Assembly: GCA_035294265.1 (NCBI GenBank)
Contig: DATGLK010000010.1
Location: forward strand, 126,858 to 190,857
DNA: 64,000 nucleotides
Direction: 5' to 3'
Origin: Candidatus Binataceae bacterium
GTDB lineage: Bacteria > Desulfobacterota > Binatia > Binatales > Binataceae
Within the stretch, counting starts at the first letter, position 1; each line of letters begins with the position of its first letter. Below, piece after piece: positions 6,701 to 47,490 of the stretch. The translations under genes and the position numbers were made by a program. Under the pieces are notes generated by a model, which had not been told where the DNA came from, made no database searches, and worked only from the letters and a program-made list of their open reading frames with translations.

Positions 6701-6889
6701 CACCGAGGAGGCCATGGTCTGCGGGCTGGCACCCGGAAGTTGGGCTTGGACCTGGATGGTGGGAAAATCGACTTGGGGAATGGGCGAGACCGGCAGATGG
6801 CGAAAAGCCAACATCCCCACCAGCATCAGGGCAATCACCAGCAGGGTGGTCGCCACCGGCTTGCGAATAAAGGGATCAGAAATTCCCAT
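3764..6889 (-). CDS. mdtC: RND multidrug efflux permease, MdtC-like
   Basis: 1041-aa protein with 12 TM helices and two large periplasmic loops. N-terminus ([64 protein letters not shown]) closely matches the MdtC/AcrB family. Overlaps the mdtB stop by 14 nt. Confidence 0.85.
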
Positions 6890-9800: not shown

Positions 9801-10001
9801 CAGCGGCGCCGTGACGTAAGAGGCCATCACGTCAGGGCTAGCTCCGGGGTAGAAGGTCATCACCTGGATGGTGGGATAATCCACCTCAGGTAGGGCCGAG
9901 ACCGGCAGCTCGCGGTAAGCAAATAGGCCCGCAATCAGCAGACCCACCATCAGCAGTGAAGTCGCTACCGGGCGCAGAATAAAGGGGCGCGACGGACTCA
10001 T
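6876..10001 (-). CDS. mdtB: RND multidrug efflux permease, MdtB-like
   Basis: 1041-aa protein. N-terminus ([67 protein letters not shown]) is near-canonical MdtB. The stop abuts the mdtA start. Confidence 0.85.
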
Positions 10002-10007
10002 CGTGCC

Positions 10008-32831: not shown

Positions 32832-33692
32832 TTGATGGGATATTCTCGGCGACCCTATACTGAACCTGCGATGGAGCGGCGGGGTGGGATGGCGGCACAG
32901 AGTTTCTCGACCCGGATGGCGGCGCGAATTCTGGCGATATCGCCGGCGCGCATTCGCTATTGGGTCAAGCGCAAGCTGGTTACCCCCACCGCCACCCACG
33001 GCCGCAACTATCAATTCAGCTTCGAAGACCTGCTGCGCATGCGGCTTACCAAAGAGTTGCTACCAAGCGGCGGTCGCATCCTGGCCCTCAAGCAATGCTT
33101 CGATCGCCTCGGCCGAGTTATCGACCAAAGTCGCCCGCTGACGTCGCTTAAACTCTACCAACGCAACGGCCATATTCTGGCCCGCGACGGCACCGCCCAA
33201 TTCGAGGCCGACAGCGGCCAACTTCTGCTCGCGTTGGCTCCGGACACCGGCCAGCCGCTGGGCAAACTGGAGGAACCAGCACGCATGCGGCGCTTGCTGC
33301 AAAACGCGGCCGAGCTGGAGGAAACCGACCCGCTGCGCGCGCTGAAGCTCTATCACGAGTATGTGGAACACGAGCCCGAGGACAGCGCGATCCATCGTCG
33401 GCTCAGTCGTCTATTCGAGACTTGCGGTGATCTCGCCGGTGCTATTCGCCATCTGGAAACGGTGGCGCGGCTGGAACCGGGCGACGCCGAGGTGCATTTC
33501 GATCTTGGAGTAATGTATCGCAAGCAATCGGACTTGGCCCGCGCGGAGGAGAATTTCCTACGTGCGCTGGAGTGCGATGCCGACCTTATCGAAGCCCATC
33601 TGCATCTGGCCGAGCTTTACGAACGCCAAAACCGGCCGCGCGATTCTTTCCGCCATCTCAGTGCCGCTCATCGTCTGATGAACAATCCCTGA
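32832..33692 (+). CDS. MerR-type HTH domain protein with C-terminal TPR repeats
   Basis: N-terminal HTH (FSTRMAARILAISPARIRYWVKRKLV). C-terminal TPR-like repeats (AIRHLETVARLEPGDAEVHFDLGVMYRKQSDLARAEENFLRALECDADLIEAHLHLAELY). Start uncertain. Confidence 0.55.
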   Translation: MMGYSRRPYTEPAMERRGGMAAQSFSTRMAARILAISPARIRYWVKRKLVTPTATHGRNYQFSFEDLLRMRLTKELLPSGGRILALKQCFDRLGRVIDQSRPLTSLKLYQRNGHILARDGTAQFEADSGQLLLALAPDTGQPLGKLEEPARMRRLLQNAAELEETDPLRALKLYHEYVEHEPEDSAIHRRLSRLFETCGDLAGAIRHLETVARLEPGDAEVHFDLGVMYRKQSDLARAEENFLRALECDADLIEAHLHLAELYERQNRPRDSFRHLSAAHRLMNNP

Positions 33693-33916
33693 AAAGCCGC
33701 CTCAACACCCCGCTTTGACAACTGCGGGCTCGGCCGCCCACATTCGAGCACAGAGCTGACGTGGGCCCGTTATTAACCAAGCAAACTAACAAAGCGGGGT
33801 AGGAAGCGTTGCCGCAACGGCCTTCCGGTCGGCTCCACAGAACAGAGAACTTGTCAAGCTTCGCAGGCGCCGGCGACCCGCTCAAGCTGGCCGCCGTGCC
33901 CTTGCCGATGGCAACA

Positions 33917-34636
33917 TTATTTGGTGGTCGGAGCCGAGGGTTTCATGTTCCTCAGATCACGGTACTTCTGAACTAACACACTGTTGTCATAAGGACGGGC
34001 ATATACCACGAAGTAGCGGTCGTCATAGATGCCAAAATGCTGGGCGGGATAGAAGCCAATCGCCGCCATCCAGCTATCCACGTCGGACTGCTTAAGCCAC
34101 ATCCAGCTGTTAAGCGAATCCTGCGGATTCTTATCGATCACCACGATCCGGCCACCGGGCTTGAGGTATTTGGCGGCATTGTCCAGGTAGGCTTGGCGGT
34201 GTTCGATCATGTGGAGAACGCGATGGAAAAACACCACGTCAACGTCCTTGACCGGCAGCTTGGGATCGTCGTATTGCCCGACTACCGTCTTGAGGTTCGT
34301 AACCCCAGCTTCCTTGGCGCGATTGCGAACGTACGCCAGCATCTTGGGATCGATGTCCACTGAGTACACCGTCCCGTTGGGCGCGACGGCCTTGGCGAAG
34401 GGAATAGAGAAGGAGCCACTGCCCGAGCCGATGTCAGCCACGATATCGCCCGACTTCAGCCCCAGCTTCTGGATGACCTGGTTTACTTTGAGGTCGCGCC
34501 CGGCCTGATTCATTCGCGCGATGTACTTGTCGGCCGGGAGCTGCTGGAGCTGCGCAGACGCGGTGGTCACCCCAGACTCGAGCAACAAGACGAGCAGTAG
34601 CAAGAAGCCCAGCAGTTTGAAGTAAACAATTCTCAT
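33917..34636 (-). CDS. Secreted class I SAM-dependent methyltransferase
   Basis: ATG after GGAGG. Signal peptide MRIVYFKLLGFLLLLVLLLESGVTTASA. Motif I VADIGSGSG. Motif II/III region LKPGGRIVVID. Confidence 0.65.
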   Translation of the reverse strand: MRIVYFKLLGFLLLLVLLLESGVTTASAQLQQLPADKYIARMNQAGRDLKVNQVIQKLGLKSGDIVADIGSGSGSFSIPFAKAVAPNGTVYSVDIDPKMLAYVRNRAKEAGVTNLKTVVGQYDDPKLPVKDVDVVFFHRVLHMIEHRQAYLDNAAKYLKPGGRIVVIDKNPQDSLNSWMWLKQSDVDSWMAAIGFYPAQHFGIYDDRYFVVYARPYDNSVLVQKYRDLRNMKPSAPTTK

Positions 34637-34833
34637 AGCTTTCAGCCTCCGGTTAGCCGTTGCGATTAAGCTGCTCGGCCCGCCTCTTTGATCCATCAGA
34701 TCTGCTGGCAGCGCGCAAGTGCGGCGGGAAGCCTGCGCGCCCTTCGCCAGCAAACTCAGGAAAAATTAGGCACTTGACGGCGTGCCGCAAAGTAATCAAG
34801 AATTCAATGAAATTATTGAAAAGGAGACGGCCA

Positions 34834-35061
34834 ATGTCTTTGGAACGATGGGTTCGATTGTTGGCGGGAAGTCTCGTAATCCTGAGCTTGGGGTTGGCGC
34901 AATTTTATAGTCGCGGCTGGCTGTTATTGACGCTCTTCGTGGGGCTCAATCTTTTCCAATCCGCCTTGACCGGCTTCTGCCCGGCCGAGGCCATCCTGAA
35001 ACGCTTTGGGCTTGGGGCGACCGCCTGTTCGCTTACCAGCCAAACGCCGTCCAAGGCCTGA
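34834..35061 (+). CDS. DUF2892 (YgaP-like) small inner-membrane protein
   Basis: ATG after AAGGAGA. Two TM helices and the conserved GFCP motif (LTGFCPAEAILKRFG). Confidence 0.6.
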   Translation: MSLERWVRLLAGSLVILSLGLAQFYSRGWLLLTLFVGLNLFQSALTGFCPAEAILKRFGLGATACSLTSQTPSKA

Positions 35062-35145
35062 AGCATGCTCCAGTCGCGAGTTGACGCAGTTCGCGCTTCC
35101 CGGCCAAGCGGCGGCGCGACTTGGGCGACGTTCAGGGAGGGACGA

Positions 35146-36519
35146 ATGAGCGCTCAGGGTTGGAGCAGGTTGGTGCTCAGCGTGCTGCTCGCCGGCCTGA
35201 TGGTAGGCGGGGCAAGCGCCGCGGAAGCGCCACCCAAGCGGATTTCGTTGGCCCAAGCCATCGCGATCGCTTTGAGGTCCAATCGCACGTTGCTAGCGGC
35301 CTCGTACGCGCAAGACGCGGCGCAAGCCACGGTAGGGGTGGCGCGCGGCGCGATGTTGCCGCGGTTGGATGCGATCGAAAATTATTCGGCCACGGATAAT
35401 CCGGTACTAGTATTTTCCGACCTCTTGCTCCAACAGGACTTCAGTCAGAGCGATTTTGCGCTTTCCAGCCTCAACCACCCTGGAACCTTGTCTAATTTTC
35501 AGAGCCAGATTCAATTGTCGTTCCCGGTCTATGCCGGGGGCAGACTTTTGGCCAGCTTCAAAGCGGCCAAGTTTGGCGCCGAAGCCGCGACCTGGCGTCA
35601 GGCGCGCACGCGCGAACAGATCGCGTTTGCCACGATCAAGGCCTATTTCACCGCGGTGCTCGCCGAAGAGCGCGTGGGCGTGATCGAGCGTGCCAGGGCC
35701 GCCGCCGACGCGCACCTAACCCAGAGCCGCAATCTGTTCGCCGAAGGGATGGCGGCCAACGCGGACATCTTGCGGACTGAGGTTTTGACCGGGGGCCTGG
35801 AGGAAGAAGACACCGACGCTCGAAGCCAGATGCAAATTGCCTGGGCGGCGCTGGCGCATGTCTTGGGTGATGAGAATGAGCGCCTCGCGCCGCTACCCAT
35901 GGCGCAGAGTGCCCTTGGCGTCGGCCCGACCGGGTCTCTCGACTTGGCCGAACTGAACCGCCAGGCCATCGCCTCACGCCCGGAGATGGGCATCGCGGCG
36001 GCCAACGTTGGGCAAGCCGAGCAAGCGGTGACAATCGCGCGCGCAGATTATTTACCTAGCGTCGGCGTGGCCACCACCTATGAAAACGATTCCGAGGAGT
36101 TGGTCCGGGCGGGGAATAATTATGCGGTTTTCGTTTACGCGCGTCTTAACCTGTTCAACGGCCTGGCGACCAAGAACAAGGTCGATGAAGCTCTGGCGCA
36201 ACTAAATCGCGCCAAGACTCTGGCCGAGGACCTTAAGCACGCCATCGGGCTGGAGGTGGAACGGGCTTACCGAACCCTGGCCGCCGCGCAACAGAATGTG
36301 AGCGTGGCGCAGCGCAACTATTCGTATGCAAGCGCCGCCTTGAAAATCCTGGAAGATCGTTATGGCGCGGGATTAGCAACTAACGTCGCGGTCCTCGACG
36401 CCCAAACTACCCGGCAGCGAGCCGACATGGAGCGGATTCGAGCGCATATAGCCCTCGCGGTTGATCGCGCCGCGCTGGAGCTGGTGGTGGGCCGGATGCC
36501 GATGGCGAACGGCCAATGA
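35146..36519 (+). CDS. Outer-membrane efflux protein (TolC/OprM family)
   Basis: ATG after GGGAGGG. Signal peptide. Duplicated OEP repeat architecture. Stop overlaps the MFP start (ATGA). Confidence 0.75.
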   Translation: MSAQGWSRLVLSVLLAGLMVGGASAAEAPPKRISLAQAIAIALRSNRTLLAASYAQDAAQATVGVARGAMLPRLDAIENYSATDNPVLVFSDLLLQQDFSQSDFALSSLNHPGTLSNFQSQIQLSFPVYAGGRLLASFKAAKFGAEAATWRQARTREQIAFATIKAYFTAVLAEERVGVIERARAAADAHLTQSRNLFAEGMAANADILRTEVLTGGLEEEDTDARSQMQIAWAALAHVLGDENERLAPLPMAQSALGVGPTGSLDLAELNRQAIASRPEMGIAAANVGQAEQAVTIARADYLPSVGVATTYENDSEELVRAGNNYAVFVYARLNLFNGLATKNKVDEALAQLNRAKTLAEDLKHAIGLEVERAYRTLAAAQQNVSVAQRNYSYASAALKILEDRYGAGLATNVAVLDAQTTRQRADMERIRAHIALAVDRAALELVVGRMPMANGQ

Positions 36520-37613
36520 CCCCAAAAGCGAACACTGCAAGTCTGCGAATACCACGCTGGATACTGTTGATCGGCGGCGTGGCTGTGATTGGCCTGCTGA
36601 TCTGGTGGAACGGCGCCGGCAAAATCGCACCTGGCTTGGTTAACCAGCGCCCCTCCTATCTTCCAAACCAAGCTGTTGTCGTGGTGTCCGAACAAACGGT
36701 GCCACAGATCTACAATCTGGTGGGGACCGTCGAGTCGGTGACGCCCGTGGAAGCCGCCAGCCGAGTGTCAGCCCGCGTAATCGCGGTTCCAGTCCATGCG
36801 GGACAGCTGGTACATCAGGGCGCGGTGTTGGTGCGACTGGACCCAAGCGGGCTGAAAGCGCAGGTGGCACAAGCGACCGGTGAGCTTGGGATGGCGCAAG
36901 CCGAACTGACAAGGAGCCAAGCAGACTATCGACGCTTTGCGGCATTGGTTAAGCGCGGCTCGGTGACCCCGCACGAATTTGACGCAGCCACCGCGGCCTA
37001 TCACGCGGCCCTGGGTAATGTGAGCCGCGCGACGGCCGCCCTGGCGGTCGCGCGCTCGGCTTTAACGTACGCCACGGTGCGCGCGCCGGTGGACGCGATA
37101 GTGGTGGAGCGGCTGGTGCGCACCGGCGACATGGCCCTACCGGGCCAACCATTGGTAAGGCTCTATGACGACAAGGCGCTTCGGGTTGAAGTGGCAGCAC
37201 CAGAAGAGCTGGCGCGGCAAATCAGGGTTGGCTCGCCGCTTAAGGTCGTGGCCGGCGACGGCGCGCTGGAGCTATCGACCCGGGTCAACGAAATTGTGCC
37301 AGCGGCTGATCCGAGCACGCGCAGCTTCAGCTTGCGAGCTCCCCTGCCTGTTGACCCTGATCTCAAGCCCGGCATGTTCGTCCGGGCGCAGTTCGTTTAC
37401 GGCACCCAAAATATGATTACCCTGCCGCGCTCAGCCATACGGCTTATCGGCCAGCTTGCAACGGTGAACGTCCTGACGCCAGGCGCAGTGCAACTGCGGC
37501 CAGTGGTTCTGGGGCGCGAGTTCAACGACCGCGTAGAAGTCCTAGCAGGTCTTAAGTCCGGCGATCGGGTAATCGCCGGCACTGCGCCGATGGTGGGCAA
37601 TGGCAACCGCTAA
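36516..37613 (+). CDS. RND efflux membrane-fusion protein (HlyD family)
   Basis: N-terminal TM anchor. Coiled-coil hairpin (QAELTRSQADYRRFAALVKRG). Lipoyl and beta-barrel MFP domains. Overlaps neighbouring genes on both sides. Confidence 0.8.
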   Translation: MTPKANTASLRIPRWILLIGGVAVIGLLIWWNGAGKIAPGLVNQRPSYLPNQAVVVVSEQTVPQIYNLVGTVESVTPVEAASRVSARVIAVPVHAGQLVHQGAVLVRLDPSGLKAQVAQATGELGMAQAELTRSQADYRRFAALVKRGSVTPHEFDAATAAYHAALGNVSRATAALAVARSALTYATVRAPVDAIVVERLVRTGDMALPGQPLVRLYDDKALRVEVAAPEELARQIRVGSPLKVVAGDGALELSTRVNEIVPAADPSTRSFSLRAPLPVDPDLKPGMFVRAQFVYGTQNMITLPRSAIRLIGQLATVNVLTPGAVQLRPVVLGREFNDRVEVLAGLKSGDRVIAGTAPMVGNGNR

Positions 37614-40600
37614 CGACGGGCCCGGATTTACCGCCAGGATTGTCGATCTCTTCCTGGGCTCCAATTTGTCGCTCCTATTATTGGTGGCCTCGCTGGCCGC
37701 CGGCGTGGTTGCGCTTGCCGTCACGCCACGCGAGGAAGATCCGCAGATTTCTGTACCGATGGCGGACGTCATCGTGCAGATGCCCGGAGCAAGCGCAGCC
37801 GAGGTCGAAAATCTGGTCACCACCAACCTCGAAAAGCGCCTGTGGGAAATGGACGGCGTCAGTCACATTTACTCGGCCTCGCAGCCCGGGGTGGCGATGG
37901 TGACCGTGCGGTTCAGCGTTGGCTACGACCGCACCAAAGCACTGGTAGAAATTTACAACAAGCTGGAGTCCAACCGCGATGCGGTACCCACCGGCGTAAC
38001 CGGTTGGATTGTCAAACCAGTAAGCATCGACGACGTCCCCATTCTCAGCGTTACCCTATACAGCGCCGAGGTCGATGACGCCATGCTGCGCCGGATTGCC
38101 GACGAAATTATGGAGCGGATGCAGGAGGTGCCCGACACCGGTCGCTCCTTTGTGGTCGGGGGGCGGCCGCGGCAGGTGCGGGTGCTGCTTGACGCCCAGC
38201 GGCTTGCCGCCCATAACCTCAGCGTCCAGGCGCTGCAACAAGCCCTCCAGGGGGCTAACACGAACCTGCGAGTCGGAAGTTTCGCGCGCGACGATCGCCA
38301 GTTCGTGATGGACAGCGGGCCTTTCCTGCGCAATGCCGAGGAAGTGGCCAGCCTGGTAGTGGGGGTGTCCGCTGGCAGGCCGGTCTACCTGCGCGATGTG
38401 GCCCAGGTGATCGACGGCCCTGCCGAGGCCACGACCTACACCAACATCGGCTTCGGCCCAGCGCGCAAATTGCTCTTTGAGGAACCCGGACAATTAAAGC
38501 TTGCGCGACTCGGAGAGCGTAGCGCGATTTATCCCGCGGTAACCATCGCTTTTGCCAAACGCCAGGGCACCAATGCAGTCGCGGTGGCCCAGGGCTTGCT
38601 CGCCAAAATCCAGGCGCTACGCCCGCTGATGCTTCCCTCCAACGTCGGGCTCTTGGTTACGCGCAACTACGGTCAGACCGCCGACGAAAAGGTCAACGAG
38701 CTGGTGCGCGAACTTCTGATCGCCGTGGCAATCATCGCCGTGCTATTGGCCTTTTCGCTCGGTGCGCGCGAGGCCTTGATCGTTGCCATCGCGGTACCGG
38801 TAACCCTGGCAGTGGCGCTATTGGGCAATCTGTTGGCCGGCTACACCATCAATCGCGTCACCCTGTTTGCCTTGATCCTTTCGCTCGGCCTGCTGGTGGA
38901 CGATCCTATTGTGGACGTCGAGAACATTCATCGTCATTTCAAGCTCCGCGAGGTACCGGCGCGCGAGGCCACCCTGATCGCGGTGGACGAGGTCCGCCCG
39001 CCCACCATTCTGGCCACTTTCACGGTGATTGTGGCCTTCATTCCGATGCTGTTCGTGGGCGGCATGATGGGACCGTACATGCGGCCGATGCCCTTCAACG
39101 TACCGCTGGCGATGCTGATGTCACTGATTGTCGCGTTCACGATCACGCCGTGGGCGGCCTTTCACCTGCTCAAGCACGAGTATGACACGCCCCCGGGAGA
39201 CGCGGCCGGCGAGGAGGGTGCGAGCATACGGCGCTGGTACAGGCGGCTGTTGCAGCCGTTGCTGGAGAGTCGGCGCCGCGCGTGGCTGTTTATCTTGGGG
39301 ATAGGTGGCGCATTCGTGCTCTCGATATTGCTGGTTATTGTGGGGCTGGTGCCGGTCAAGATGCTGCCGTTCGATAACAAAAACGAACTCGATCTGGTGA
39401 TCGACATGCCGCAGGACACGCCCCTGGAGGCGACTAACGCAGTCACCCTCGACTTCGAACGGCTACTGGCACGCGTCAACGAGATCACCGACTACGAAGC
39501 TTACGTCGGGACCAATTCGCCTTTCGACTTTAATGGCATGGTTCGGCACTACTATCTGCGTCAGGCGCCATGGCAAGCTGATATCCGAATCCAGCTCGCG
39601 CCTAAAAGCAACCGCCAGCAGTCCTCGCATGAAATCGCGCTGCGGCTGGAACCGTTGGTGCGCGCGATCGCCCGGCGCGATCATGTCCGCCTGGCTAAAA
39701 TAATCGAAGTCCCGCCCGGCCCGCCGGTGCTGGCCTCGGTGGTTGCCGAAATCTACGGCCCGCCGTATGCGGAATACACTCAGCTAATCGAGTATGGACG
39801 CCAACTCAAAGGCGTGTTCGCCAACACCGCGGGCCTGGTGTCGCCCGATGATTTTTCCATAACCCGTGCTCCACGGCTGAAGTTTGTCGTCGATCGGCAG
39901 AAAGCGGCGCTCAACGGCATCACCACCGCCGCCGTCGCCCAAGCGCTGGCGATCGCGCTCGGCGGTCAGTCCGCCGGTACCATCCACGCCGAATCCGAAC
40001 GCGCCCCATTGCTGATCGAAATTAGAATGGCGCGCGCCGCGCGCTCTTCGCTGCAGGGGCTGTTGGCGCTCAAGCTGCGTGGATCCGCCGGTCAGCTAGT
40101 GCCGCTCTCGGAACTGGGTGAAATTGAGCAGACCACCGATGAGCAGCCGATTTATCATAAGGATCTGCGGCGGGTCGCGATGGTAATGGCGGGCACGGCT
40201 GGAATCAGCCCGGTCAACGAAGTGTTATGGCTCGAGGGCCGCACCGCTCGCATGCTCCCCCGCGGCTACTCGATTGTGTGGACCGGGGAAGGCGAATGGC
40301 ACATTACGGTCCAGGTCTTCCGCGACCTGGGCGTGGCCTTCGCCGCCGCACTCTTCTTCATCTACATCCTGCTGGTGGGGCAAACCGGATCGATGGCCAT
40401 GCCGTTGATCATAATGGCGGCAATACCCTTGACACTGGTGGGTATCATGCCGGGGTTCTTTGTCCTGAACCTGCTGACCAATCATCCTGTCGCCGGCTAC
40501 TCCGACCCAACCTTCTTTACCGCCACCGCGATGATCGGAATGATCGCGCTGGCCGGGATCGTGGTTCGCAATTCCATCATCCTGATCGACTTCATCCATC

Positions 40601-40848
40601 TCGGTCTCGCCCGCGGACTCAGCCTGGAGGAAGCCGTGCTGGAGGCTGGTGCCGTGCGCTTTCGCCCCATTGTGCTGACCGCTAGCGCGGCGGTGCTGGG
40701 CTCGATCGTAATTACGCTGGATCCGATCTTCTCGGGGCTGGCCTGGGCCTTTATCTTTGGGATTTTCGCTTCCACCGGCTTTACCCTGCTGGTGGTGCCA
40801 CTGATTTACTACCTCGTTTACGGCGAACCTCGTACAGATGTCCGGTAG
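37600..40848 (+). CDS. RND efflux permease (AcrB/CusA superfamily; subfamily not resolved)
   Basis: 1082-aa protein with 12 TM helices and two large periplasmic loops. Last gene of the OMF-MFP-RND operon. Confidence 0.8.
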   Translation: MATANDGPGFTARIVDLFLGSNLSLLLLVASLAAGVVALAVTPREEDPQISVPMADVIVQMPGASAAEVENLVTTNLEKRLWEMDGVSHIYSASQPGVAMVTVRFSVGYDRTKALVEIYNKLESNRDAVPTGVTGWIVKPVSIDDVPILSVTLYSAEVDDAMLRRIADEIMERMQEVPDTGRSFVVGGRPRQVRVLLDAQRLAAHNLSVQALQQALQGANTNLRVGSFARDDRQFVMDSGPFLRNAEEVASLVVGVSAGRPVYLRDVAQVIDGPAEATTYTNIGFGPARKLLFEEPGQLKLARLGERSAIYPAVTIAFAKRQGTNAVAVAQGLLAKIQALRPLMLPSNVGLLVTRNYGQTADEKVNELVRELLIAVAIIAVLLAFSLGAREALIVAIAVPVTLAVALLGNLLAGYTINRVTLFALILSLGLLVDDPIVDVENIHRHFKLREVPAREATLIAVDEVRPPTILATFTVIVAFIPMLFVGGMMGPYMRPMPFNVPLAMLMSLIVAFTITPWAAFHLLKHEYDTPPGDAAGEEGASIRRWYRRLLQPLLESRRRAWLFILGIGGAFVLSILLVIVGLVPVKMLPFDNKNELDLVIDMPQDTPLEATNAVTLDFERLLARVNEITDYEAYVGTNSPFDFNGMVRHYYLRQAPWQADIRIQLAPKSNRQQSSHEIALRLEPLVRAIARRDHVRLAKIIEVPPGPPVLASVVAEIYGPPYAEYTQLIEYGRQLKGVFANTAGLVSPDDFSITRAPRLKFVVDRQKAALNGITTAAVAQALAIALGGQSAGTIHAESERAPLLIEIRMARAARSSLQGLLALKLRGSAGQLVPLSELGEIEQTTDEQPIYHKDLRRVAMVMAGTAGISPVNEVLWLEGRTARMLPRGYSIVWTGEGEWHITVQVFRDLGVAFAAALFFIYILLVGQTGSMAMPLIIMAAIPLTLVGIMPGFFVLNLLTNHPVAGYSDPTFFTATAMIGMIALAGIVVRNSIILIDFIHLGLARGLSLEEAVLEAGAVRFRPIVLTASAAVLGSIVITLDPIFSGLAWAFIFGIFASTGFTLLVVPLIYYLVYGEPRTDVR

Positions 40849-41635
40849 GCGCGCATTAATCAGACCAGCTCCAGCCAAGCGCGAATCGCACGGCTTGGAA
40901 ATCGCCGATGCGGCGCGGCTCATCGTTGCGGGGGATGAAGCCTCGGCCGCAATTCAGGACCGGCTGTTCGAGCAGCTCGCAATCGTGGGTAAGGCGGTCG
41001 CCAGCAAGCAGCGGCTCAAACTGCTGGAGCTGCTGGCCCAAACCAATCGCACAGTTGAGGCGCTGGCCCGCGAAGCTAATCTGTCCGTGGCCAACGTGTC
41101 GCAGCATCTTCAAGTGCTGCGCGCCGCCGGCATCGTCGAAGCAAACCGAGCGGGCCTTTTCGTCTCGTACCGGTTGGCGGGTCCCGACGTGCTCGCATTA
41201 CTTACAGCTATTCGCTCAGTCGCCGAGAAGCGCCTGGGAGAGATCGATCGCTTGATGCGCTCTTACTTGGCCAATGCCGACGATCTTGAGCCGCTGACCA
41301 ATGCCCAATTGCTGCGAAGACTGCGTACCGGCGACATCATCGTCATCGACGTCAGGCCGGCGGAGGAATACGCCGCAGGCCACTTACCCGGAGCAATCTG
41401 CATGCCGCTCCCTGAGTTGAAGGAGCGCCTTAAGGAACTTCCAACCAACAAAGAGGTGATCGCCTATTGCCGCGGCCCCTACTGTCTGCTCGCACATCGC
41501 GCAGTTGCCCTGTTGCGCCACCGGGGCAGGCGAGCACGCCGTTTGCGCGAAGGATTTCCGCAGTGGCAGGCCGATGGCATGCCAGTCAACAGTGGGCTCG
41601 AACCCGCCGACGACCATAAACGGCCAACTCTCTGA
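40838..41635 (+). CDS. ArsR/SmtB-family HTH regulator fused to a rhodanese domain
   Basis: ArsR HTH (LKLLELLAQTNRTVEALAREANLSVANVSQHLQVLRAAGIV). Rhodanese active-site loop (AYCRGPYC). ATG overlaps the RND stop by 11 nt. Confidence 0.7.
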   Translation: MSGRRALIRPAPAKRESHGLEIADAARLIVAGDEASAAIQDRLFEQLAIVGKAVASKQRLKLLELLAQTNRTVEALAREANLSVANVSQHLQVLRAAGIVEANRAGLFVSYRLAGPDVLALLTAIRSVAEKRLGEIDRLMRSYLANADDLEPLTNAQLLRRLRTGDIIVIDVRPAEEYAAGHLPGAICMPLPELKERLKELPTNKEVIAYCRGPYCLLAHRAVALLRHRGRRARRLREGFPQWQADGMPVNSGLEPADDHKRPTL

Positions 41636-41639
41636 CGCT

Positions 41640-43094
41640 TCAGGGCTCGGCGGGCGGGGCGGAATTGCGCGCGGGAGGCTCGCCTGGAGGCGTCATGGTT
41701 TGCAGAAAATCCACGATCGCATCGACTTCCGACGGACTCAAGTTGCTGCCATAGGCGGGCATGTTACCACCGCCCTGCAGAATTTGACGAATCAGTTCGT
41801 TGCGCGTAAGCCGAGTGGCCACGTTGTCGAGCATCGGACCGCGTTTGCCGCCTTGACCGCCCAGCGCATGGCAGTTGCGACACTGTTTATCCTGGATGAG
41901 CAGCGCCCCCTGCAGTTGCAGCGGTGTGCGCCCCTTGACGTAATCCACAGGAGTTGGCACCGCGCTCCAGGCATCCATCACCGGCGACCAGGGCGAACTG
42001 AGGCCCAGCCAGGTCATCGTGGCAAAGAGCAGAAAGGCCAGAATCACGAAGACCACCGCGAAGGGGCGGCGGCGAAAGCTTTTTTCCCCAGTGCCGGAAT
42101 AAAATGGCAGGCCAATCAGAATGGCAATCAGCACCACCGGCCCGACCAGGATCAAAAAAGTCTCGGTCCAGGGCGGAAGTAGGGCGAAGAGGGCGAACAA
42201 CCACAGAAAAAAAATGTCAGGGCGGGGCACGGTTTCGATGATCGACGGATCGGGCCGCCCGTTGGGGCCAATCGGGCCGGCCAGCGCCGCCACAATCAGC
42301 AAAGCCAACACGATCAGCCCGGCAAAAATCAGATCTTTTTGCGCCGCCCAAGGAAAAAAGCTCTCGCCGTCGCGCTCCACCAGCTCGTGATATTCCCGGA
42401 GATAGGTCTCGCGCTTAACCACCCGACCCGGTACCGGCCACTCATTGATCCCTAGGCGCAAAACCAAAAACAAGTGCAGGCCGACAAAGCCCAGCAAGAT
42501 GCCGGGAATCACGAAAACGTGCAGGGCGAAGAAGCGCGACAACGTCTCGCCCGCGATAATCGGACCGCCCAGCAGCAGATGGACAAGACGCGGTCCAAGC
42601 AGCGGCACTCGTCCCATGATCGCGGCCGCGATGCCCAGTCCCCAGTAGGCGTCTTGGTCAAAGCGCAGCACCTGCCCGGTGAAGGCCATCCCCAGCGTGC
42701 ACAGCAGCAGAACCACGCCAGCCAGCCAGGTCAGCTCGCGCGGATACTTGTAAGCGCCGAATAGGAAGACCTGGATCAGATGGATGAACATCAGGGCCAC
42801 CATGAAATTAGAGCCCCAACCATGCAGCGCACGTAGGTACCAGCCCAGCGGCTCCTGGTAATTGAGATAAATCAAGCTGTTCCAGGCGCGGTCGGCGGCA
42901 GGTACGTAAACCGTGGCCAGGCAGATCCCGGTGACGATCTGCAGGATCAGTACGGTAAAGGTCGCGCTACCAAAGACATACCACCAACTGGCCGAGTTGC
43001 GCGGTACTCGATGGCGGGCGGCTTCCTCGATCGCCCCCGCCAGATGGGTACGTTCCTCGAGCCATCCGCCGATCGCTCTTAACCAGCGCTGCAT
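41640..43094 (-). CDS. qcrB: Cytochrome b of a bc-type complex with fused C-terminal mono-heme cytochrome c domain
   Basis: Cytochrome b fold with conserved heme-ligand His residues across 8+ TM helices. C-terminal CRNCH heme-c motif. Confidence 0.8.
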   Translation of the reverse strand: MQRWLRAIGGWLEERTHLAGAIEEAARHRVPRNSASWWYVFGSATFTVLILQIVTGICLATVYVPAADRAWNSLIYLNYQEPLGWYLRALHGWGSNFMVALMFIHLIQVFLFGAYKYPRELTWLAGVVLLLCTLGMAFTGQVLRFDQDAYWGLGIAAAIMGRVPLLGPRLVHLLLGGPIIAGETLSRFFALHVFVIPGILLGFVGLHLFLVLRLGINEWPVPGRVVKRETYLREYHELVERDGESFFPWAAQKDLIFAGLIVLALLIVAALAGPIGPNGRPDPSIIETVPRPDIFFLWLFALFALLPPWTETFLILVGPVVLIAILIGLPFYSGTGEKSFRRRPFAVVFVILAFLLFATMTWLGLSSPWSPVMDAWSAVPTPVDYVKGRTPLQLQGALLIQDKQCRNCHALGGQGGKRGPMLDNVATRLTRNELIRQILQGGGNMPAYGSNLSPSEVDAIVDFLQTMTPPGEPPARNSAPPAEP

Positions 43095-43109
43095 TCTCTC
43101 ATCCGTCCG

Positions 43110-43640
43110 CTAAACCTGAGTCTGACCCAAGGTGGGCAACTCGCCCGCACGCACCCAGAGCTGCCCATTGCTAATTTTGTAGGAATAGCGATAGAGCGGG
43201 CGCGGGGGCGGTCCCGAAGCCCGCCGGCCGTCGGCGTAATAGACTCCGCCATGACAGGGGCACATGAACAACTGGGATTCCTGGAACCAGCGCACCGGAC
43301 AGCCCAAATGGGTGCAATTGATGGCAAAGATTTGAAATTTATCCTGCGACAGGCGGCGCACCCAGCAGGGAATGTCAGCGGTGGAACCGTCCCAGGGTTT
43401 GACGAAGGGATTGCGATAGGTCGCCAGAAGGGTTTGGCCAAGGGGAAAATTCGTGACCGGCCCCAGCGCGATCCAGGTCAAGTAAGTGCGGCGCAAAGCC
43501 GGCGCCAGGAGATAACCCAGCACTGGAATGGCGAACAACAACGCAACGCCCGCGTTGAGCAGCGCCGCCAGCTTGAGCAACGCGCGTCGGGTGGGTTGTT
43601 CGTGCCGCTGGCCGTCGTGGGCCTGGGTCTCCTCACTCAT
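43110..43640 (-). CDS. qcrA: Rieske [2Fe-2S] iron-sulfur subunit of a bc-type complex
   Basis: CTHLGC ... CPCHGG boxes. N-terminal TM/Tat-like region (RRALLKLAALLNAG). ATG overlaps the upstream diheme cytochrome c stop (ATGA). Confidence 0.8.
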   Translation of the reverse strand: MSEETQAHDGQRHEQPTRRALLKLAALLNAGVALLFAIPVLGYLLAPALRRTYLTWIALGPVTNFPLGQTLLATYRNPFVKPWDGSTADIPCWVRRLSQDKFQIFAINCTHLGCPVRWFQESQLFMCPCHGGVYYADGRRASGPPPRPLYRYSYKISNGQLWVRAGELPTLGQTQV

Positions 43641-44368
43641 CTGCTGCTCCTGGAAAGTTGCGCGCCGACATCGCTGCTGCCTAGCGCTGGCGGCCGTTGG
43701 GCGGCCAGCCAAGTCACGATATCGGTGACTTGCGTCGCGTCGAGTGGATGGCCCGCTGAATAGCCGCGCCAATTAGGATGGCCCAAATCGGGACGCCCTG
43801 CCACGATAACGGCAGCCAAATGCCGGTCGCTGACCAGGGTCAGATAGTCGGGATTGACAATCGCGCCGGGAGTGGCGCCACCGCGCCCATCTGGTCCGTG
43901 GCAGGAGGCGCAAAAGGCGAGATAATCCTGGCGCCCTTGCCGCGGATTGCCTTCGGCGCCGGCGAAAACCGGCGCACCGACCGCCGAGCTACCTTGCCCC
44001 CACCGCTGGCTAATCCCCTCGACCAGAATAGCGATTTGGCGGTCAGTGAGCGTACCGCCGGCGGCAAGCGAAAACCCGGGCATCGCCGTTCCGGGCCGGC
44101 CGCGCGCGATTAAATCGCGCAGCACCGAGGTTCCGAGCCAATTCACCAGCACCGGATTGTCCAGCGCCATCGCCGCGCCGAAGCGGCCATCCACACCGTG
44201 ACATCCAGCGCAATTTTCGCCATAGAGCTGAGCGAAGTCGGAAACTGCGCTGGGCTGAACCGGCCGCTGGCTGGGACGCGGGCGGCCAGGCATCCCGTTG
44301 CACGCGCCCAACGCCAGCGCCCACAGCAGTGCCGCGATTCGCGAAACAACAGAGTAAGGATGGTTCAT
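43637..44368 (-). CDS. qcrC: Diheme cytochrome c (QcrC/cytochrome cc-like)
   Basis: Two CxxCH motifs (CAGCHG, CASCHG). Signal/lipobox-like N-terminus (LALGAC). Start taken at MNHPY. Confidence 0.65.
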   Translation of the reverse strand: MNHPYSVVSRIAALLWALALGACNGMPGRPRPSQRPVQPSAVSDFAQLYGENCAGCHGVDGRFGAAMALDNPVLVNWLGTSVLRDLIARGRPGTAMPGFSLAAGGTLTDRQIAILVEGISQRWGQGSSAVGAPVFAGAEGNPRQGRQDYLAFCASCHGPDGRGGATPGAIVNPDYLTLVSDRHLAAVIVAGRPDLGHPNWRGYSAGHPLDATQVTDIVTWLAAQRPPALGSSDVGAQLSRSSR

Positions 44369-45198
44369 CACTGCTGGGGCCCGCGCAAGCCCGGGGCCTC
44401 CAATCCGCTGCGAACCGCGAACGGCATGAATTGAAGCGTATGAATCCGTTCGGCGCGGGCCGTGACCAATCCCGCGGTTAGGCCAAAGCCGAATTGGCAG
44501 AGCACGAACCACCCCCAGTCGATGCGCTGATCGAGCACTGGGTTAATCACGCTCAGGCTGGCCCACAGAAAGCCGCTCCACATCAGCGGCGCGATAACCC
44601 CACCGAAGAGCACTGGTCGGCGCGGCAGCATCGGGAGCAGTACGCCGTAGAGCAGGCCAACCAGCAGCGAGACCAGGGCGTGAATCAGCGTGGCGATGAG
44701 CAGAATTTCCAGATTGAAACGCGCCAGCTCCGAGAACCTGGCGTTGGCCAGTCCGGGCATCACGCTGGCGGCCAGAATGTTGATCGGATACCAGAGGCTG
44801 CCGTAACGCGCCCAGCCGTACAGCCCTGCCATCACCGCCATGACCACTCCGCCAGCCAACCCGCCTTTGATTCCCGCCGAATATGGATAGATCTCTAGCG
44901 GGAGGACCGCGCGATTGCCCGCCTCGCCGATTTCCAGCCGCGCCGCCGCCGGATGCGGCTGCCAGGCAATCGCCGGCTGGCGTGGGAGTTCGATCGCCTC
45001 GCAATGCTCTTGCGGTATCACCTCGCGCGCCCAACCCACCGCCCCGGCAATCGCCAAGACCGCGCCCACCAGGCTCACACTCAAGTTGAGGACCAAACCA
45101 GCGAAAAGGAACGCCAGCCCCAGCGCCATGAGCATCGGCCAAGCGGTAGGCGCCGGCACCTCGATTGTTGGCTGGGTCTGTGCTTCTCGTTCGGCCAT
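44368..45198 (-). CDS. Polytopic membrane protein of unknown function inside the oxidase-bc cluster (possible caa3 assembly/accessory subunit)
   Basis: 277 aa with at least 6 predicted TM helices. No recognisable cofactor motifs. Position between ctaE and qcrC. Confidence 0.45.
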   Translation of the reverse strand: MAEREAQTQPTIEVPAPTAWPMLMALGLAFLFAGLVLNLSVSLVGAVLAIAGAVGWAREVIPQEHCEAIELPRQPAIAWQPHPAAARLEIGEAGNRAVLPLEIYPYSAGIKGGLAGGVVMAVMAGLYGWARYGSLWYPINILAASVMPGLANARFSELARFNLEILLIATLIHALVSLLVGLLYGVLLPMLPRRPVLFGGVIAPLMWSGFLWASLSVINPVLDQRIDWGWFVLCQFGFGLTAGLVTARAERIHTLQFMPFAVRSGLEAPGLRGPQQ

Positions 45199-45211
45199 CG
45201 CCTTGTCCCCT

Positions 45212-45814
45212 TCAGCGGCCCACCACGTAGACCGTAAGGAAGACCACCACCCATACGCAATCGACAAAATGCCAGTACCACGAGAGCATCTCGATCCGCT
45301 CAGCGTGGCGGCGCTCCACACTGCCGCGCAAGGTAAGCAGCAAGACGATGGCCAGACCAATCAGTCCCACGCTGACATGGAAAGCGTGCAAGCCGACCAG
45401 CGAATAATAGGTGGTGCCAAAGAGGTTGGTGTGGATGGTCAAGCCGTCGCGGTATATCAGCTCGTACCATTCACGCGCAGTGCCCAGGAGGAATTCCAAT
45501 CCCAACAACCAGGTTATCAACCACCACATTGCGAAGCGGTCGCGCGCACCGGCCCGCAAATTGCGCATCGCCAGCACGATCGTCAGGCTGCTCGAGAGCA
45601 GACAGATAGTGTTGACGATCGGTGGGCTGAGCACATCACGCGGATAGGGACCGGTCAGGCTTTTGCCGATATAAAACACATAGGCCGCAACGAAGATCGA
45701 GAAGAAGGCGCTCTCGGTCAGGATGAGGCAAAGCATCCCAACCCGCCCGCGCGCCGGACGCTCTGACTCGGTGAACGCGTACACCGCCATCGCTGGTGCC
45801 GCTGACACGCTCAT
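45212..45814 (-). CDS. ctaE: Cytochrome c oxidase subunit III
   Basis: COX III helix pattern (WWLITWLLGLEFLLGTAREW, GLHAFHVSVG, WYWHFVDCVW). ATGA overlap with the ctaD stop. Confidence 0.8.
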   Translation of the reverse strand: MSVSAAPAMAVYAFTESERPARGRVGMLCLILTESAFFSIFVAAYVFYIGKSLTGPYPRDVLSPPIVNTICLLSSSLTIVLAMRNLRAGARDRFAMWWLITWLLGLEFLLGTAREWYELIYRDGLTIHTNLFGTTYYSLVGLHAFHVSVGLIGLAIVLLLTLRGSVERRHAERIEMLSWYWHFVDCVWVVVFLTVYVVGR

Positions 45815-47490
45815 TCGTATCTCCAATCGGGGTCGTCGGGATGTTTCAAATCCCACAGTGGGCGGCGACTTTGAACCACCGGCAGCTGCGCGAAATTGTA
45901 TTCAGGCGGGGGCGAGCTGGTGGTCCATTCTAGGGTCCAGGCATCCCAGGGATCGTCGCCAGCCAGAGTCCCGTCGTACAACGAGTGGACAACATTAATC
46001 AGAAACAACAACACTGCCACGGCTTGAAAAGCCACGCCGATACTGGCGATCAAATTGAACAGCTCCAAGCCGCGGCCGGCCTGATAAATATAGATTCGCC
46101 GCGGCATCCCATACATCCCGGCCAGATGGAGCGGATCGAAGGTCAGATGGAAGCCGATCAGGAGCAGCCAGAAGTGCCATCGCCCCAGCCGCTCGCTTAG
46201 CATTCGCCCGGTCGCCTTGGGAAACCAATAGTAGATGGCGGCGAAGATCATGAAGAGGATTGCGCCGACCAGGACGTAATGGAAATGGGCGACGACAAAG
46301 TAGGTATCGGTAAGCTGCCAGTCGAAGGGCGCCACCGCCAGAATGATGCCGGTCAAGCCGGCGATCAGAAACTGAAAGAGAAAGCCCAGACAGAATAGCA
46401 TGGGCACCCGGAATCGCAGCTTACCGCCCCAGATCGTGGCCAGCCAATTGAAGATCTTAATCCCGGTTGGCACGGCGATGAGCATCGTCGAGGTGACGAA
46501 AAAAGCGTTGCCCGCCGGGCTCATCCCGACCGCGAACATATGGTGAGCCCACACCCCCAGGCTGATGAAGCCGATCGCGACCGAGGCCGCGACCATCGCC
46601 TGGTAACCGAAGATCACCTTGCGCGAGAAAACTGGGATTATCTCAGAGGCAAAGCCGAACGCGGGTAAGACCAGGATGTAAACCTCGGGGTGGCCGAAGA
46701 TCCAGAAGAAATGCTGCCAAAGCAGGGCCGAGCCACCGGCCTGAGTGTCGAAGAAATGCGCGCCCAAGTAGCGATCCAGCAGCAGCATCACTTGGGCCGC
46801 GGACAGCGGCGGCAACGCGACCAACATCAGGAAAGCGGTCACCAGGCTCAGCCAGACCAGCACGGGCATCTTGTTCAGACTCATTCCCTCGCAGCGCAGG
46901 CTCAAGGTGGTCGCGACGATGTTAATCGCGGCGGCCGTCGAGCCCACGCTGGTCAGGAAGATGCTCAGAATCCAGTAATCGGTACTGTTGCCGCGCGAAA
47001 ACGCACGCTCGGTCAGCGGCGCGTACGCAAACCAGCCTACGTTGGGCGCACTGCCCGCGCCGTACAGCCCTTCGGCACCCAGGTAGCTGAAATACAGCAG
47101 CAGCGCGCCGAACAACCACAACCAGAAGCCGAAGGCGTTAAGCCGGGGAAAGGCCATGTCCCGCGCGCCGATCATCAAGGGTAGCAGGTAGTTGATGAAG
47201 CCGATAAGAATCGGCATCCCCACCAGAAATACCATCGAGGTGCCGTGCATCGTCAACAGGCGATTGAAGACCGCGGGCGGGACCAGATGATTGTCGGGTA
47301 GCGCCAACTGCATACGCATCGTCGCCGCCTGCAATCCGGCGATCACGAAGAACAGCAGCCCCCCGCCGATATACATCAAGCCTAGCCGCTTATGATCGAC
47401 CGTCACCACCCATTGGTGGATACGCTCCAAGCGGGGCAAACGGACCGCCTCCGCCTCCAACGTCAGCGCGGGTTCGAAACTACCGGCCAT
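45811..47490 (-). CDS. ctaD: Cytochrome c oxidase subunit I (heme-copper oxidase catalytic subunit)
   Basis: 559 aa with 12 TM helices. Canonical His ligands (WFFGHPEVY, HHMF, VAHFHYVL). Confidence 0.9.
   Translation of the reverse strand: MAGSFEPALTLEAEAVRLPRLERIHQWVVTVDHKRLGLMYIGGGLLFFVIAGLQAATMRMQLALPDNHLVPPAVFNRLLTMHGTSMVFLVGMPILIGFINYLLPLMIGARDMAFPRLNAFGFWLWLFGALLLYFSYLGAEGLYGAGSAPNVGWFAYAPLTERAFSRGNSTDYWILSIFLTSVGSTAAAINIVATTLSLRCEGMSLNKMPVLVWLSLVTAFLMLVALPPLSAAQVMLLLDRYLGAHFFDTQAGGSALLWQHFFWIFGHPEVYILVLPAFGFASEIIPVFSRKVIFGYQAMVAASVAIGFISLGVWAHHMFAVGMSPAGNAFFVTSTMLIAVPTGIKIFNWLATIWGGKLRFRVPMLFCLGFLFQFLIAGLTGIILAVAPFDWQLTDTYFVVAHFHYVLVGAILFMIFAAIYYWFPKATGRMLSERLGRWHFWLLLIGFHLTFDPLHLAGMYGMPRRIYIYQAGRGLELFNLIASIGVAFQAVAVLLFLINVVHSLYDGTLAGDDPWDAWTLEWTTSSPPPEYNFAQLPVVQSRRPLWDLKHPDDPDWRYE

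Follow-up and report, generated by a model that had tools for sequence, protein, structure and literature searches.

A five-gene RND efflux operon closed by an ArsR-rhodanese fusion regulator in a Candidatus Binataceae genome: predicted self-repression and a possible link to reactive sulfur or thiol stress

The window analysed here is a stretch of 64 kb from a metagenome-assembled genome of a Candidatus Binataceae bacterium (GCA_035294265.1, contig DATGLK010000010.1, positions 126,858 to 190,857), and positions below are counted from its first nucleotide. Five co-directional genes on its forward strand (34834-41635) encode a small DUF2892 protein, an outer-membrane factor (OEP), a membrane-fusion protein (MFP), a resistance-nodulation-division (RND) pump and, last in line, a regulator in which an ArsR-type DNA-binding domain is fused to a rhodanese domain (Table 1). 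An initial annotation, made from the sequence alone, had described this five-gene efflux operon and proposed that it answers to reactive sulfur species or thiol-reactive compounds; Pfam and NCBIfam profile matches confirm all five genes, with the same coordinates and strand. The analysis presented here suggests an operon that is switched on in response to reactive sulfur or thiol stress rather than to drugs or metals.

The first gene of the operon is preceded by AAGGAG 7 nt 5′ of its ATG and encodes a protein with two hydrophobic helices and a conserved Cys-Pro. The GFCP motif attributed to it earlier is present, within TGFCPAE, and the cysteine of this (F/W)CP motif is near-invariant among 34 aligned homologues. 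Its Pfam family is named after YgaP; the protein itself consists of the DUF2892 domain alone and is not a YgaP-type membrane rhodanese. The OEP translation carries a Sec-type signal peptide and has GGAGGG 5 nt 5′ of its start, with another possible ATG upstream at 35065. The genes that follow overlap one another, MFP with the OEP stop by 4 nt, RND with MFP by 14 nt and the regulator, if read from the ATG at 40838, with the RND stop by 11 nt. An identical NCBI protein (P0001, 100%, 246 aa) begins at a TTG at 40895, 46 nt past the RND stop, and the first ~35 residues of the longer form are unconserved in an alignment of 25 regulator sequences (A1) and of low confidence in the structural model. 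Among homologues, the two genes overlap by 4 nt in L001 and L005 but are 85 nt apart in L006, at the other end of the range. The regulator can thus be called translationally coupled, as had been suggested, with the ATG start and not with the TTG start, but its co-transcription with the pump genes is likely whichever codon is used. No RNA family was found with Rfam at 33000-43000.

Table 1. Genes and sequence features of the operon, followed by those of its surroundings in the 64-kb window.
Feature	Position	Strand	Basis or remark
Promoter-like site	34774-34803	+	consensus scan; -35 TTGACG (34774-34779), 18-nt spacer, -10 AAGAAT (34798-34803)
Predicted operator, 18-bp dyad TTCAA-TGAAATTA-TTGAA	34803-34820	.	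exact TTCAA-N8-TTGAA
DUF2892 / YgaP-like_TM, 75 aa	34834-35061	+	PF11127, 46.7 bits vs cut-off 25.3, E 3.6e-12
Outer-membrane factor (OEP/TolC family)	35146-36519	+	PF02321, E 5e-48
Periplasmic adaptor (MFP)	36516-37613	+	TIGR01730 RND_mfp, 199.6 bits vs cut-off 94.9
RND inner-membrane permease, 1082 aa	37600-40848	+	PF00873 (ACR_tran), E 2e-151
ArsR-rhodanese fusion regulator, 265 aa from ATG	40838-41635	+	HTH_5 E 1.3e-11; Rhodanese E 9.9e-19
Winged helix-turn-helix of regulator	~41006-41140	+
Rhodanese domain of regulator	~41300-41572	+
Rhodanese active-site loop codons, C211-R-G-P-Y-C216	41468-41485	+	proposed sensing Cys pair; invariant in homologues
Class-I SAM methyltransferase, divergent	33917-34636	-	Methyltransf_31/25/11
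Promoter-like site overlapping the dyad	34840-34812	-
MerR-type HTH fused to TPR repeats, 286 aa	32832-33692	+
Second RND system	3764-11399	-	MdtABC-like arrangement, two tandem RND genes after the MFP gene
MFP of second system	10008-11399	-
Tandem RNDs of second system	6876-10001 and 3764-6889	-
Respiratory cluster	41640-47490	-
Cytochrome b with C-terminal c-type cytochrome domain	41640-43094	-	respiratory cluster
Cytochrome oxidase subunit I	45811-47490	-	respiratory cluster

The regulator belongs to the ArsR/SmtB family (PF01022, 44.6 bits vs cut-off 22; NF033788, 67.4 vs 55), and its ArsR domain is placed by Foldseek at a TM-score of 0.9 to 3GW2 and CzrA. The rhodanese domain is equally evident (PF00581, 68.1 bits vs cut-off 22.2) and, in agreement with the initial annotation, has a cysteine at the catalytic-loop position, in the AYCRGPYC of residues 209-216; this C211 aligns with the catalytic cysteine of the 3TP9 rhodanese domain (CRTGGRS). 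CRGPYC is present in 120/120 best homologues and AYCRGPYC is invariant in A1, which marks C211/C216 as an invariant pair across the sequences compared. These two and C188 are the only cysteines of the protein, and all three lie within the rhodanese domain. Residues 1-140 hold no cysteine and just two histidines (H18 and H90), and the metal ligand sets of ArsR proteins (alpha3/alpha3N Cys, alpha5 His/Asp/Glu) are absent from this part. Likewise, 86 of the 120 homologues have no cysteine before the rhodanese domain. The ArsR part of the A1 alignment contains no conserved cysteine, whereas the recognition-helix residues S83, A85, S88, H90 and L91 are invariant there. A dithiol of the BigR/SqrR type, which had been considered for this protein, is therefore excluded by the criterion that the initial annotation itself had set, and any sensing must use the C211/C216 of the rhodanese loop. 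The score to the BigR equivalog model also falls short (NF040642, 35.7 bits vs cut-off 155). The AF2 model has a pLDDT of 86.5, with both domains mostly above 90 and an uncertain domain orientation (pTM 0.54); sequence and structure searches returned no PDB chain spanning both an ArsR and a rhodanese domain.

The fusion is found in a large family: more than 7400 of the scored candidates match at E<=1e-10, and of the representatives at 50% identity ~498 reach E<=1e-30. The family is defined here by a two-domain build of ~220-265 aa with an invariant AYCRGPYC loop; all 120 listed homologues have both Pfam domains and CRGPYC, and the family extends over Myxococcota, Acidobacteriota, Gemmatimonadota, many Proteobacteria including sulfur oxidisers, Actinomycetota, Chloroflexota and others. 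A literature search under several names found no paper naming an ArsR-rhodanese fusion, so the statement that such systems sense persulfide, on which the earlier interpretation drew, is to be read as an assumption and not as established knowledge.

A look for an ArsR-type dyad operator upstream of 34834 or 35146 had been suggested as a check, and a candidate is present before 34834. When the region in front of DUF2892 is aligned between the window, L001, L006 and L009 (loci are named by number), a conserved block is seen beside the DUF2892 ribosome-binding site, and this block contains the dyad. Its exact form, TTCAA-N8-TTGAA, occurs once in the window and was independently recovered as inverted repeat I8. 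It ends 13 nt before the DUF2892 start and overlaps the -10 of the promoter-like site, of which the TTGAC -35-like element is found at the aligned position in the same three loci. At the equivalent position upstream of DUF2892, L006 has an exact copy of the dyad, L001 a copy with one mismatch, and L009 and L171 copies with two.

The dyad was followed in two samples. The first is centred on the regulator and comprises 81 diverse ArsR-rhodanese loci, of which 52, from many phyla, have the dyad (<=1 mismatch) in a narrow zone directly 5′ of the ArsR-rhodanese gene; a Mycobacterium sp. (L054) is an example, with an exact dyad 21 nt before the start. Its density is 2.04/kb upstream of the regulator against 0.022/kb for the background, taken as the per-kb rate elsewhere in the same loci, a ~94-fold enrichment, and the extended consensus reads TATTCAA-nTAATnnn-TTGAATA. 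The second sample is centred on the pump and comprises 80 relatives of the RND (41-74% identity) gathered by a metagenome scan with an RND alignment. In these loci the dyad is at a background rate of 0.032/kb, and the fused ArsR-rhodanese is present in one of them, L107. The dyad hence tracks the regulator, and a tie to the pump was rejected. Two one-mismatch dyads inside the OEP and MFP genes of the window have GC-rich spacers and are at chance level (0.95 expected).

These positions fit a dyad that marks autoregulation in most genomes and that, in the pump-linked clade, has moved to the operon head before DUF2892. As it overlaps the promoter -10 there, the product of the last gene is most likely a repressor of all five genes, its own included; we infer both binding to the predicted operator and repression rather than activation. 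The unusual autoregulatory layout noted in the initial annotation, with the sensor as the last gene, is supported by this predicted operator at the head of the operon.

The gene order DUF2892-(OsmC)-OEP-MFP-RND-ArsR/Rhod was found again in L001-3, L005, L006-8, L009, L171 and L172. The module is present in at least seven other lineages with different flanking genes each time, and such recurrence among unrelated flanks indicates that the arrangement is not due to chance. The regulators of these relatives are the closest homologues of the window protein (58-72% identity) and their RNDs are 77-83% identical. A rearranged form is seen in L107, where the fusion regulator is divergent from OEP-MFP-RND (RND 74% identical) and is adjoined by a homologue of the window methyltransferase. 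With the conserved module and the family operator upstream of DUF2892, the earlier proposal of a functional tie of the regulator and DUF2892 to the pump is upheld. In L172 (9186-9893), a membrane methyltransferase of the ICMT/PEMT family, a MarR regulator and an Fe/Mn superoxide dismutase adjoin the module; the ICMT/PEMT Pfam families include methanethiol/H2S methyltransferases such as MddA.

A link of the whole ArsR-rhodanese family to RND pumps was considered and rejected. An RND gene lies within 5 kb, the distance used for the neighbour counts of these loci, in just 5/81 regulator loci, of which four have distant RNDs and one (L058) has a 50%-identity member of the clade with its own DUF2892. 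The regulator-pump link is thus specific to the Binatia-like clade. In L058 (10735-19883), from a Ca. Binatia, the regulator stands 4.5 kb from a unit of extracytoplasmic function (ECF) sigma factor, DUF2892, RND (50% identical) and MFP, the sigma factor being fused to a zf-HC2 anti-sigma domain and lying directly 5′ of DUF2892-RND-MFP. The ArsR-rhodanese gene of this locus is followed, ahead of the sigma factor, by a pyridoxal-phosphate enzyme of Cys/Met metabolism and a class-V aminotransferase, possible producers of H2S or persulfide.

The nearest solved structures of the RND are TriC (6VEJ, E 1.7e-64), MexK and MdtB, followed by pumps of the hydrophobe/amphiphile efflux type (HAE-1), and no CusA or ZneA entry is among its best 60 PDB matches. 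Every curated NCBIfam RND cut-off is missed, by the best model, RND_permease_2 (449 bits vs 1250), by TIGR00915 (286 vs 940) and by the CusA/CzcA model TIGR00914 (258 vs 701). The motif of transmembrane helix 4 (TM4), LGLLVDDPIVDVEN, contains VDD, with D434 and D435 invariant in alignment A2. The corresponding motif of heavy-metal efflux (HME) RNDs is DFG...DGA...VEN. By model scores, TM4 motif and PDB matches a heavy-metal pump of the CzcA/CusA kind is ruled out, which settles as predicted a point raised by the initial annotation, although the Met triad was not compared residue by residue. The pump is by its sequence of a non-metal type and appears to form a divergent clade on the HAE-1 side.

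Since TriC, MexK and MdtB are drug or biocide exporters and local repressors are frequent in RND operons, the locus might be an ordinary multidrug or solvent efflux operon in which the rhodanese is a catalytic or structural passenger and DUF2892 an unrelated neighbour. We regard this as very improbable in view of the invariance of CRGPYC in all homologues examined, the position of the operator, which stands before DUF2892 rather than before the pump genes, and the distribution of DUF2892 itself. In the pump-centred sample, where neighbours were counted on 78 loci, DUF2892 is at the operon edge in ~29, 11 of these at -12 to +21 nt from the RND stop; it is retained beside the RND operons across rearrangements, often overlapping the RND stop codon. 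By comparison, none of the eight loci with distant RND matches has DUF2892 within 5 kb of the ArsR-rhodanese gene.

The RND-clade loci also carry genes for SQR-like (sulfide:quinone oxidoreductase) proteins (~12), small ArsR regulators (~14), rhodanese, TauE and peroxiredoxin. For two of the small ArsR proteins (L163, L164) the best NCBIfam match is BigR, and the L164 protein has cysteines at 41 and 107, where the sensing pair of SqrR is located. Other relatives of the pump are paired with an ArsR of the CVC-motif (metal/metalloid) type, with TauE upstream (L134 4443-4820, L138 582-1055), from which it follows that the regulator slot of the pump clade is filled by different ArsR subtypes. Fusions are seen near these systems too, of a rhodanese with an SQR-like flavoprotein (L129 6043-7950, L164 3534-5237) and of an MFS transporter with a rhodanese (L068 3776-5452).

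For the regulator loci, neighbours were assigned by all-against-all clustering and seed phmmer, greedy longest-ORF calling being too noisy in the high-GC loci, where several large neighbour clusters are shadow ORFs with no Pfam match. Genes of sulfur oxidation or sulfur transfer (PDO-like, DsrE, SQR-like, rhodanese, TauE) lie near the ArsR-rhodanese gene in 49/81 loci. By kind, the loci have MFS transporters (25), methyltransferases (24, heterogeneous), metallo-beta-lactamase-fold proteins resembling persulfide dioxygenase (PDO; 21), DsrE (21), fatty-acid hydroxylase (20), extra rhodaneses (16), SQR-like flavoproteins (12), class-V aminotransferases (9), peroxiredoxins (7), TauE (6) and MMPL (5). 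The best PDB matches of the PDO-like proteins are CstB-like 3TP9/3R2U, PDO 4YSB, BpPRF and ETHE1. The sulfur hypothesis is therefore supported by two independent lines of gene context, the neighbours of the regulator family on the one hand and those of the RND relatives (DUF2892, SQR-like and BigR-like genes) on the other, and to this extent the proposed sulfur link of the pump is borne out. The methyltransferase association is weak, its 24/81 being inflated because the homology is of a generic class-I kind and the enzymes are heterogeneous.

A membrane protein of the fatty-acid-hydroxylase family (PF04116) lies within 5 kb of ArsR-rhodanese in 20/81 loci (L015, L018, L019, L022, L036, L037, L041, L043, L044, L046, L047, L049, L057, L058, L064, L069, L071, L086, L087 and L089). 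In 18 of the 20 the clustered ORF is on the opposite strand, at a median distance of 85 nt; being mostly divergent and immediately upstream, the gene would share the dyad region.

The same surroundings bear on the possibility that the loop cysteines sense a metalloid or chalcogen (As(III)/Sb(III), selenium or tellurium) which the pump and the neighbouring methyltransferase would detoxify. The ArsR/SmtB membership is in keeping with it, NF033788 being named a metalloregulator, as is the rhodanese fold shared with arsenate reductases of the Cdc25/Acr2 type. ArsM-like methyltransferases with FHFHxG occur near ~6 loci of the family, the divergent methyltransferase of the window weakly matches arsenite methyltransferase (68 bits vs cut-off 263), and there are weak matches to models of rhodanese-related selenoproteins. 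Nevertheless, a metalloid or chalcogen signal seems improbable for a protein with neither the alpha3 (CVC) nor the alpha5 ligand set, and with a six-residue loop of the rhodanese type in place of the CX5R of arsenate reductases and phosphatases. Furthermore, no ars transport or reductase genes are in the recurrent neighbour clusters of the 81 loci, and the pump is not of the heavy-metal type.

Among characterized systems, SqrR of Rhodobacter capsulatus and BigR of Xylella and Acinetobacter are persulfide-sensing repressors with the same ArsR-type winged helix-turn-helix fold. They resemble the window regulator in their association with SQR, PDO, rhodanese and TauE, in a palindromic operator (here predicted) whose half-sites are 8 nt apart and which overlaps the promoter, in the use of a Cys pair for sensing (here proposed), and in that BigR-like regulators occupy the slot beside related pumps (L163, L164). 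The operator reported for SqrR is ATTC-N8-GAAT, compared with the TTCAA/TTGAA half-sites described here. The main difference is the place of the Cys pair, which in the window protein is in the fused C-terminal rhodanese domain, with none in the ArsR domain; in SqrR the sensing cysteines are C41/C107 and in BigR C42/C108 (PMC9774590).

In both sequence and structure, the ArsR domain is matched best by the N-terminal fragment (1-100) of Rv0324/Mb0332 of the Mycobacterium tuberculosis complex (PDB 3GW2/2KKO), with 44% identity and a TM-score of 0.90 normalised to the target. Family members with the two-domain build are found in Mycobacterium sp. (L054) and Kribbella (L078). A search for full-length Rv0324 with the PDB fragment returned truncated or frameshifted copies only, one of which, the frameshifted M. 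tuberculosis copy P0271, begins MAGQS, as does the Rv0324 cloning primer (PMC4916473). When compared with L054, the tail of P0271 is a +1-frame reading of the family motif DVRP...AGHIPGA, which makes it very probable from sequence that Rv0324 has the ArsR and rhodanese build; it appears to belong to the ArsR-rhodanese family. Its deletion causes hypersensitivity to bedaquiline, and it is a regulator of bedaquiline tolerance (PMC9480834); overexpression alters the expression of the neighbouring Rv0325-0327c (PMC4916473). The literature searched reports no signal or operator for Rv0324 and contains no paper pairing it with a rhodanese, and it differs from the window regulator in having no linkage to an RND pump.

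In Escherichia coli ygaVP, DUF2892 is joined to a rhodanese and the ArsR protein is separate. The same three modules are thus found in another combination from that seen here, where ArsR is fused to the rhodanese and DUF2892 is alone; the ArsR-type autorepressor YgaV (PDB 3CUO) matches the window regulator at E 6e-4, and ygaVP is not known to include an efflux pump. Another system with related gene content is an operon of Azospira suillum PS (Dsui_3440-3443) for a protein of unknown function, an RND, an SQR and an MFP, which is strongly induced under H2S-oxidising conditions, as is a separate DUF2892 gene (Dsui_0042) by H2S; deletion gave no defect in the rate of sulfide oxidation, and the authors' view is that the pumps export metal-sulfide (PMC5358917). 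It matches the co-location of DUF2892, SQR and RND in the metagenome loci, although no ArsR-rhodanese regulator is described there. The paired Asp of the TM4 proton relay is shared by the window RND with the HAE-1-type systems TriABC, MexJK and MdtABC, the match to TriC being distant (221 bits over the full length). These systems, like MexR/MexAB-OprM, differ from the present operon in the regulator family and sensor domain, and DUF2892 is no part of them. Sulfane sulfur is already known to regulate an RND pump, MexAB-OprM, through the MarR-family repressor MexR (PMC9495516).

Taken together, the reading we prefer, with a probability of roughly one half, is of a self-repressed five-gene stress-efflux operon whose sulfur-derived signal is read by the rhodanese loop. 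A dimer of the ArsR-rhodanese protein would bind the dyad over the -10/start region before DUF2892 and hold DUF2892, the tripartite pump and the regulator at a low level. The signal would be read by the fused rhodanese domain and not by the ArsR domain, which has neither cysteines nor metal ligands. Cys211, the catalytic residue, would most likely take sulfane sulfur from persulfides, polysulfides or thiosulfate, and the invariant Cys216, five residues on, may then close a di-, tri- or polysulfide bridge, upon which the protein would change and the DNA be released. Derepression would lead to production of the pump and of DUF2892, a small membrane protein bearing a cysteine, which might together remove a sulfur-derived or thiol-reactive hydrophobic compound located in the membrane or periplasm, possibly polysulfide/S0 or organic polysulfanes. 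A more specific form of this proposal would have the ArsR-rhodanese proteins as widespread and so far overlooked sulfane-sulfur sensors, in which the rhodanese loop catalyses its own persulfidation and a Cys211-Cys216 bridge follows, and the DUF2892-RND clade as a dedicated exporter of zero-valent sulfur, polysulfide or organic persulfide through the Gram-negative envelope, with DUF2892 as its Cys-bearing accessory subunit; as a whole we consider it unlikely.

The OsmC and peroxiredoxin neighbours make an oxidant-sensing variant a serious rival to a sulfur-derived signal, albeit in our estimate an unlikely one. Cys211/Cys216 would then be a general thiol-oxidation switch answering to peroxides, hypochlorite, electrophiles or disulfide stress, and the pump would expel oxidised lipids, organic hydroperoxides or electrophiles. 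A gene of the OsmC family of organic hydroperoxide reductases sits between DUF2892 and OEP in L006, L009 and L172, and the superoxide dismutase and MarR genes beside the module of L172 are of the same tendency, as are the peroxiredoxins near 7/81 family loci and several RND-clade loci. A CxxxxC pair can, moreover, form a disulfide with no sulfur donor. Against this, the pair belongs to the active-site loop of a sulfurtransferase fold, genes of sulfur oxidation are the commonest neighbours of the family (49/81 loci), and regulators of the BigR/SqrR type take the place of the fusion beside related pumps.

Several points weigh against the preferred reading of a sulfur-responsive, self-repressed operon. 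With OsmC in three versions of the module and peroxiredoxins as common neighbours, an oxidant or organic-peroxide signal fits this evidence equally well. The window contains no SQR, PDO, DsrE or TauE gene, and in the literature searched no ArsR-rhodanese protein is characterised as a sensor of sulfur by biochemistry or transcript measurements. The substrate of the RND is unreadable from its sequence and the pump has no conserved cysteine. The likeness to the Azospira operon (pump Dsui_3441) is one of gene content and induction. As regards the operator region, the promoter-like site before DUF2892 was recognised by consensus alone and the window dyad is flanked by AA...AA, not by the TA...TA of the extended consensus. 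The start codon of the regulator is ambiguous between ATG 40838 and TTG 40895.

The operon is bordered upstream by the divergent methyltransferase, which shares with it an intergenic region of 197 nt and has a minus-strand promoter-like site overlapping the dyad. It is possibly co-regulated from this region, and its membership of the system is uncertain. Its N-terminus looks like a Sec signal peptide (MRIVYFKLLGFLLLLVLLLESGVTTASAQ), which is odd for a SAM-dependent enzyme. The MerR-type gene with TPR repeats adjoins the methyltransferase on its upstream side. Downstream, the respiratory cluster is convergent on the operon, with 4 nt between the convergent stop codons, and it also holds a Rieske-like ORF and a dihaem-like cytochrome c ORF. 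The second RND system of the window is unrelated to the first and has no DUF2892 or ArsR-rhodanese near it.

Efflux operons under a thiol-based repressor of the ArsR family are of a kind already known. The known sulfur-sensing repressors SqrR, BigR and CstR have their sensing cysteines in the domain that binds DNA; if the proposal is true, leaving this task to a fused sulfurtransferase domain would be a different sensor design, in a family of several hundred clusters at 50% identity and many phyla. The predicted operator TTCAA-N8-TTGAA is newly defined here, and with it a predicted regulon in this genome, and the same logic would give Rv0324 of M. tuberculosis a defined signal and operator. 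The repeated company of DUF2892, SQR-like genes and BigR-like regulators in the pump clade suggests that certain RND pumps may handle the products of sulfur oxidation, a possibility of interest for how Gram-negative bacteria move S0 or polysulfide out of the periplasm.

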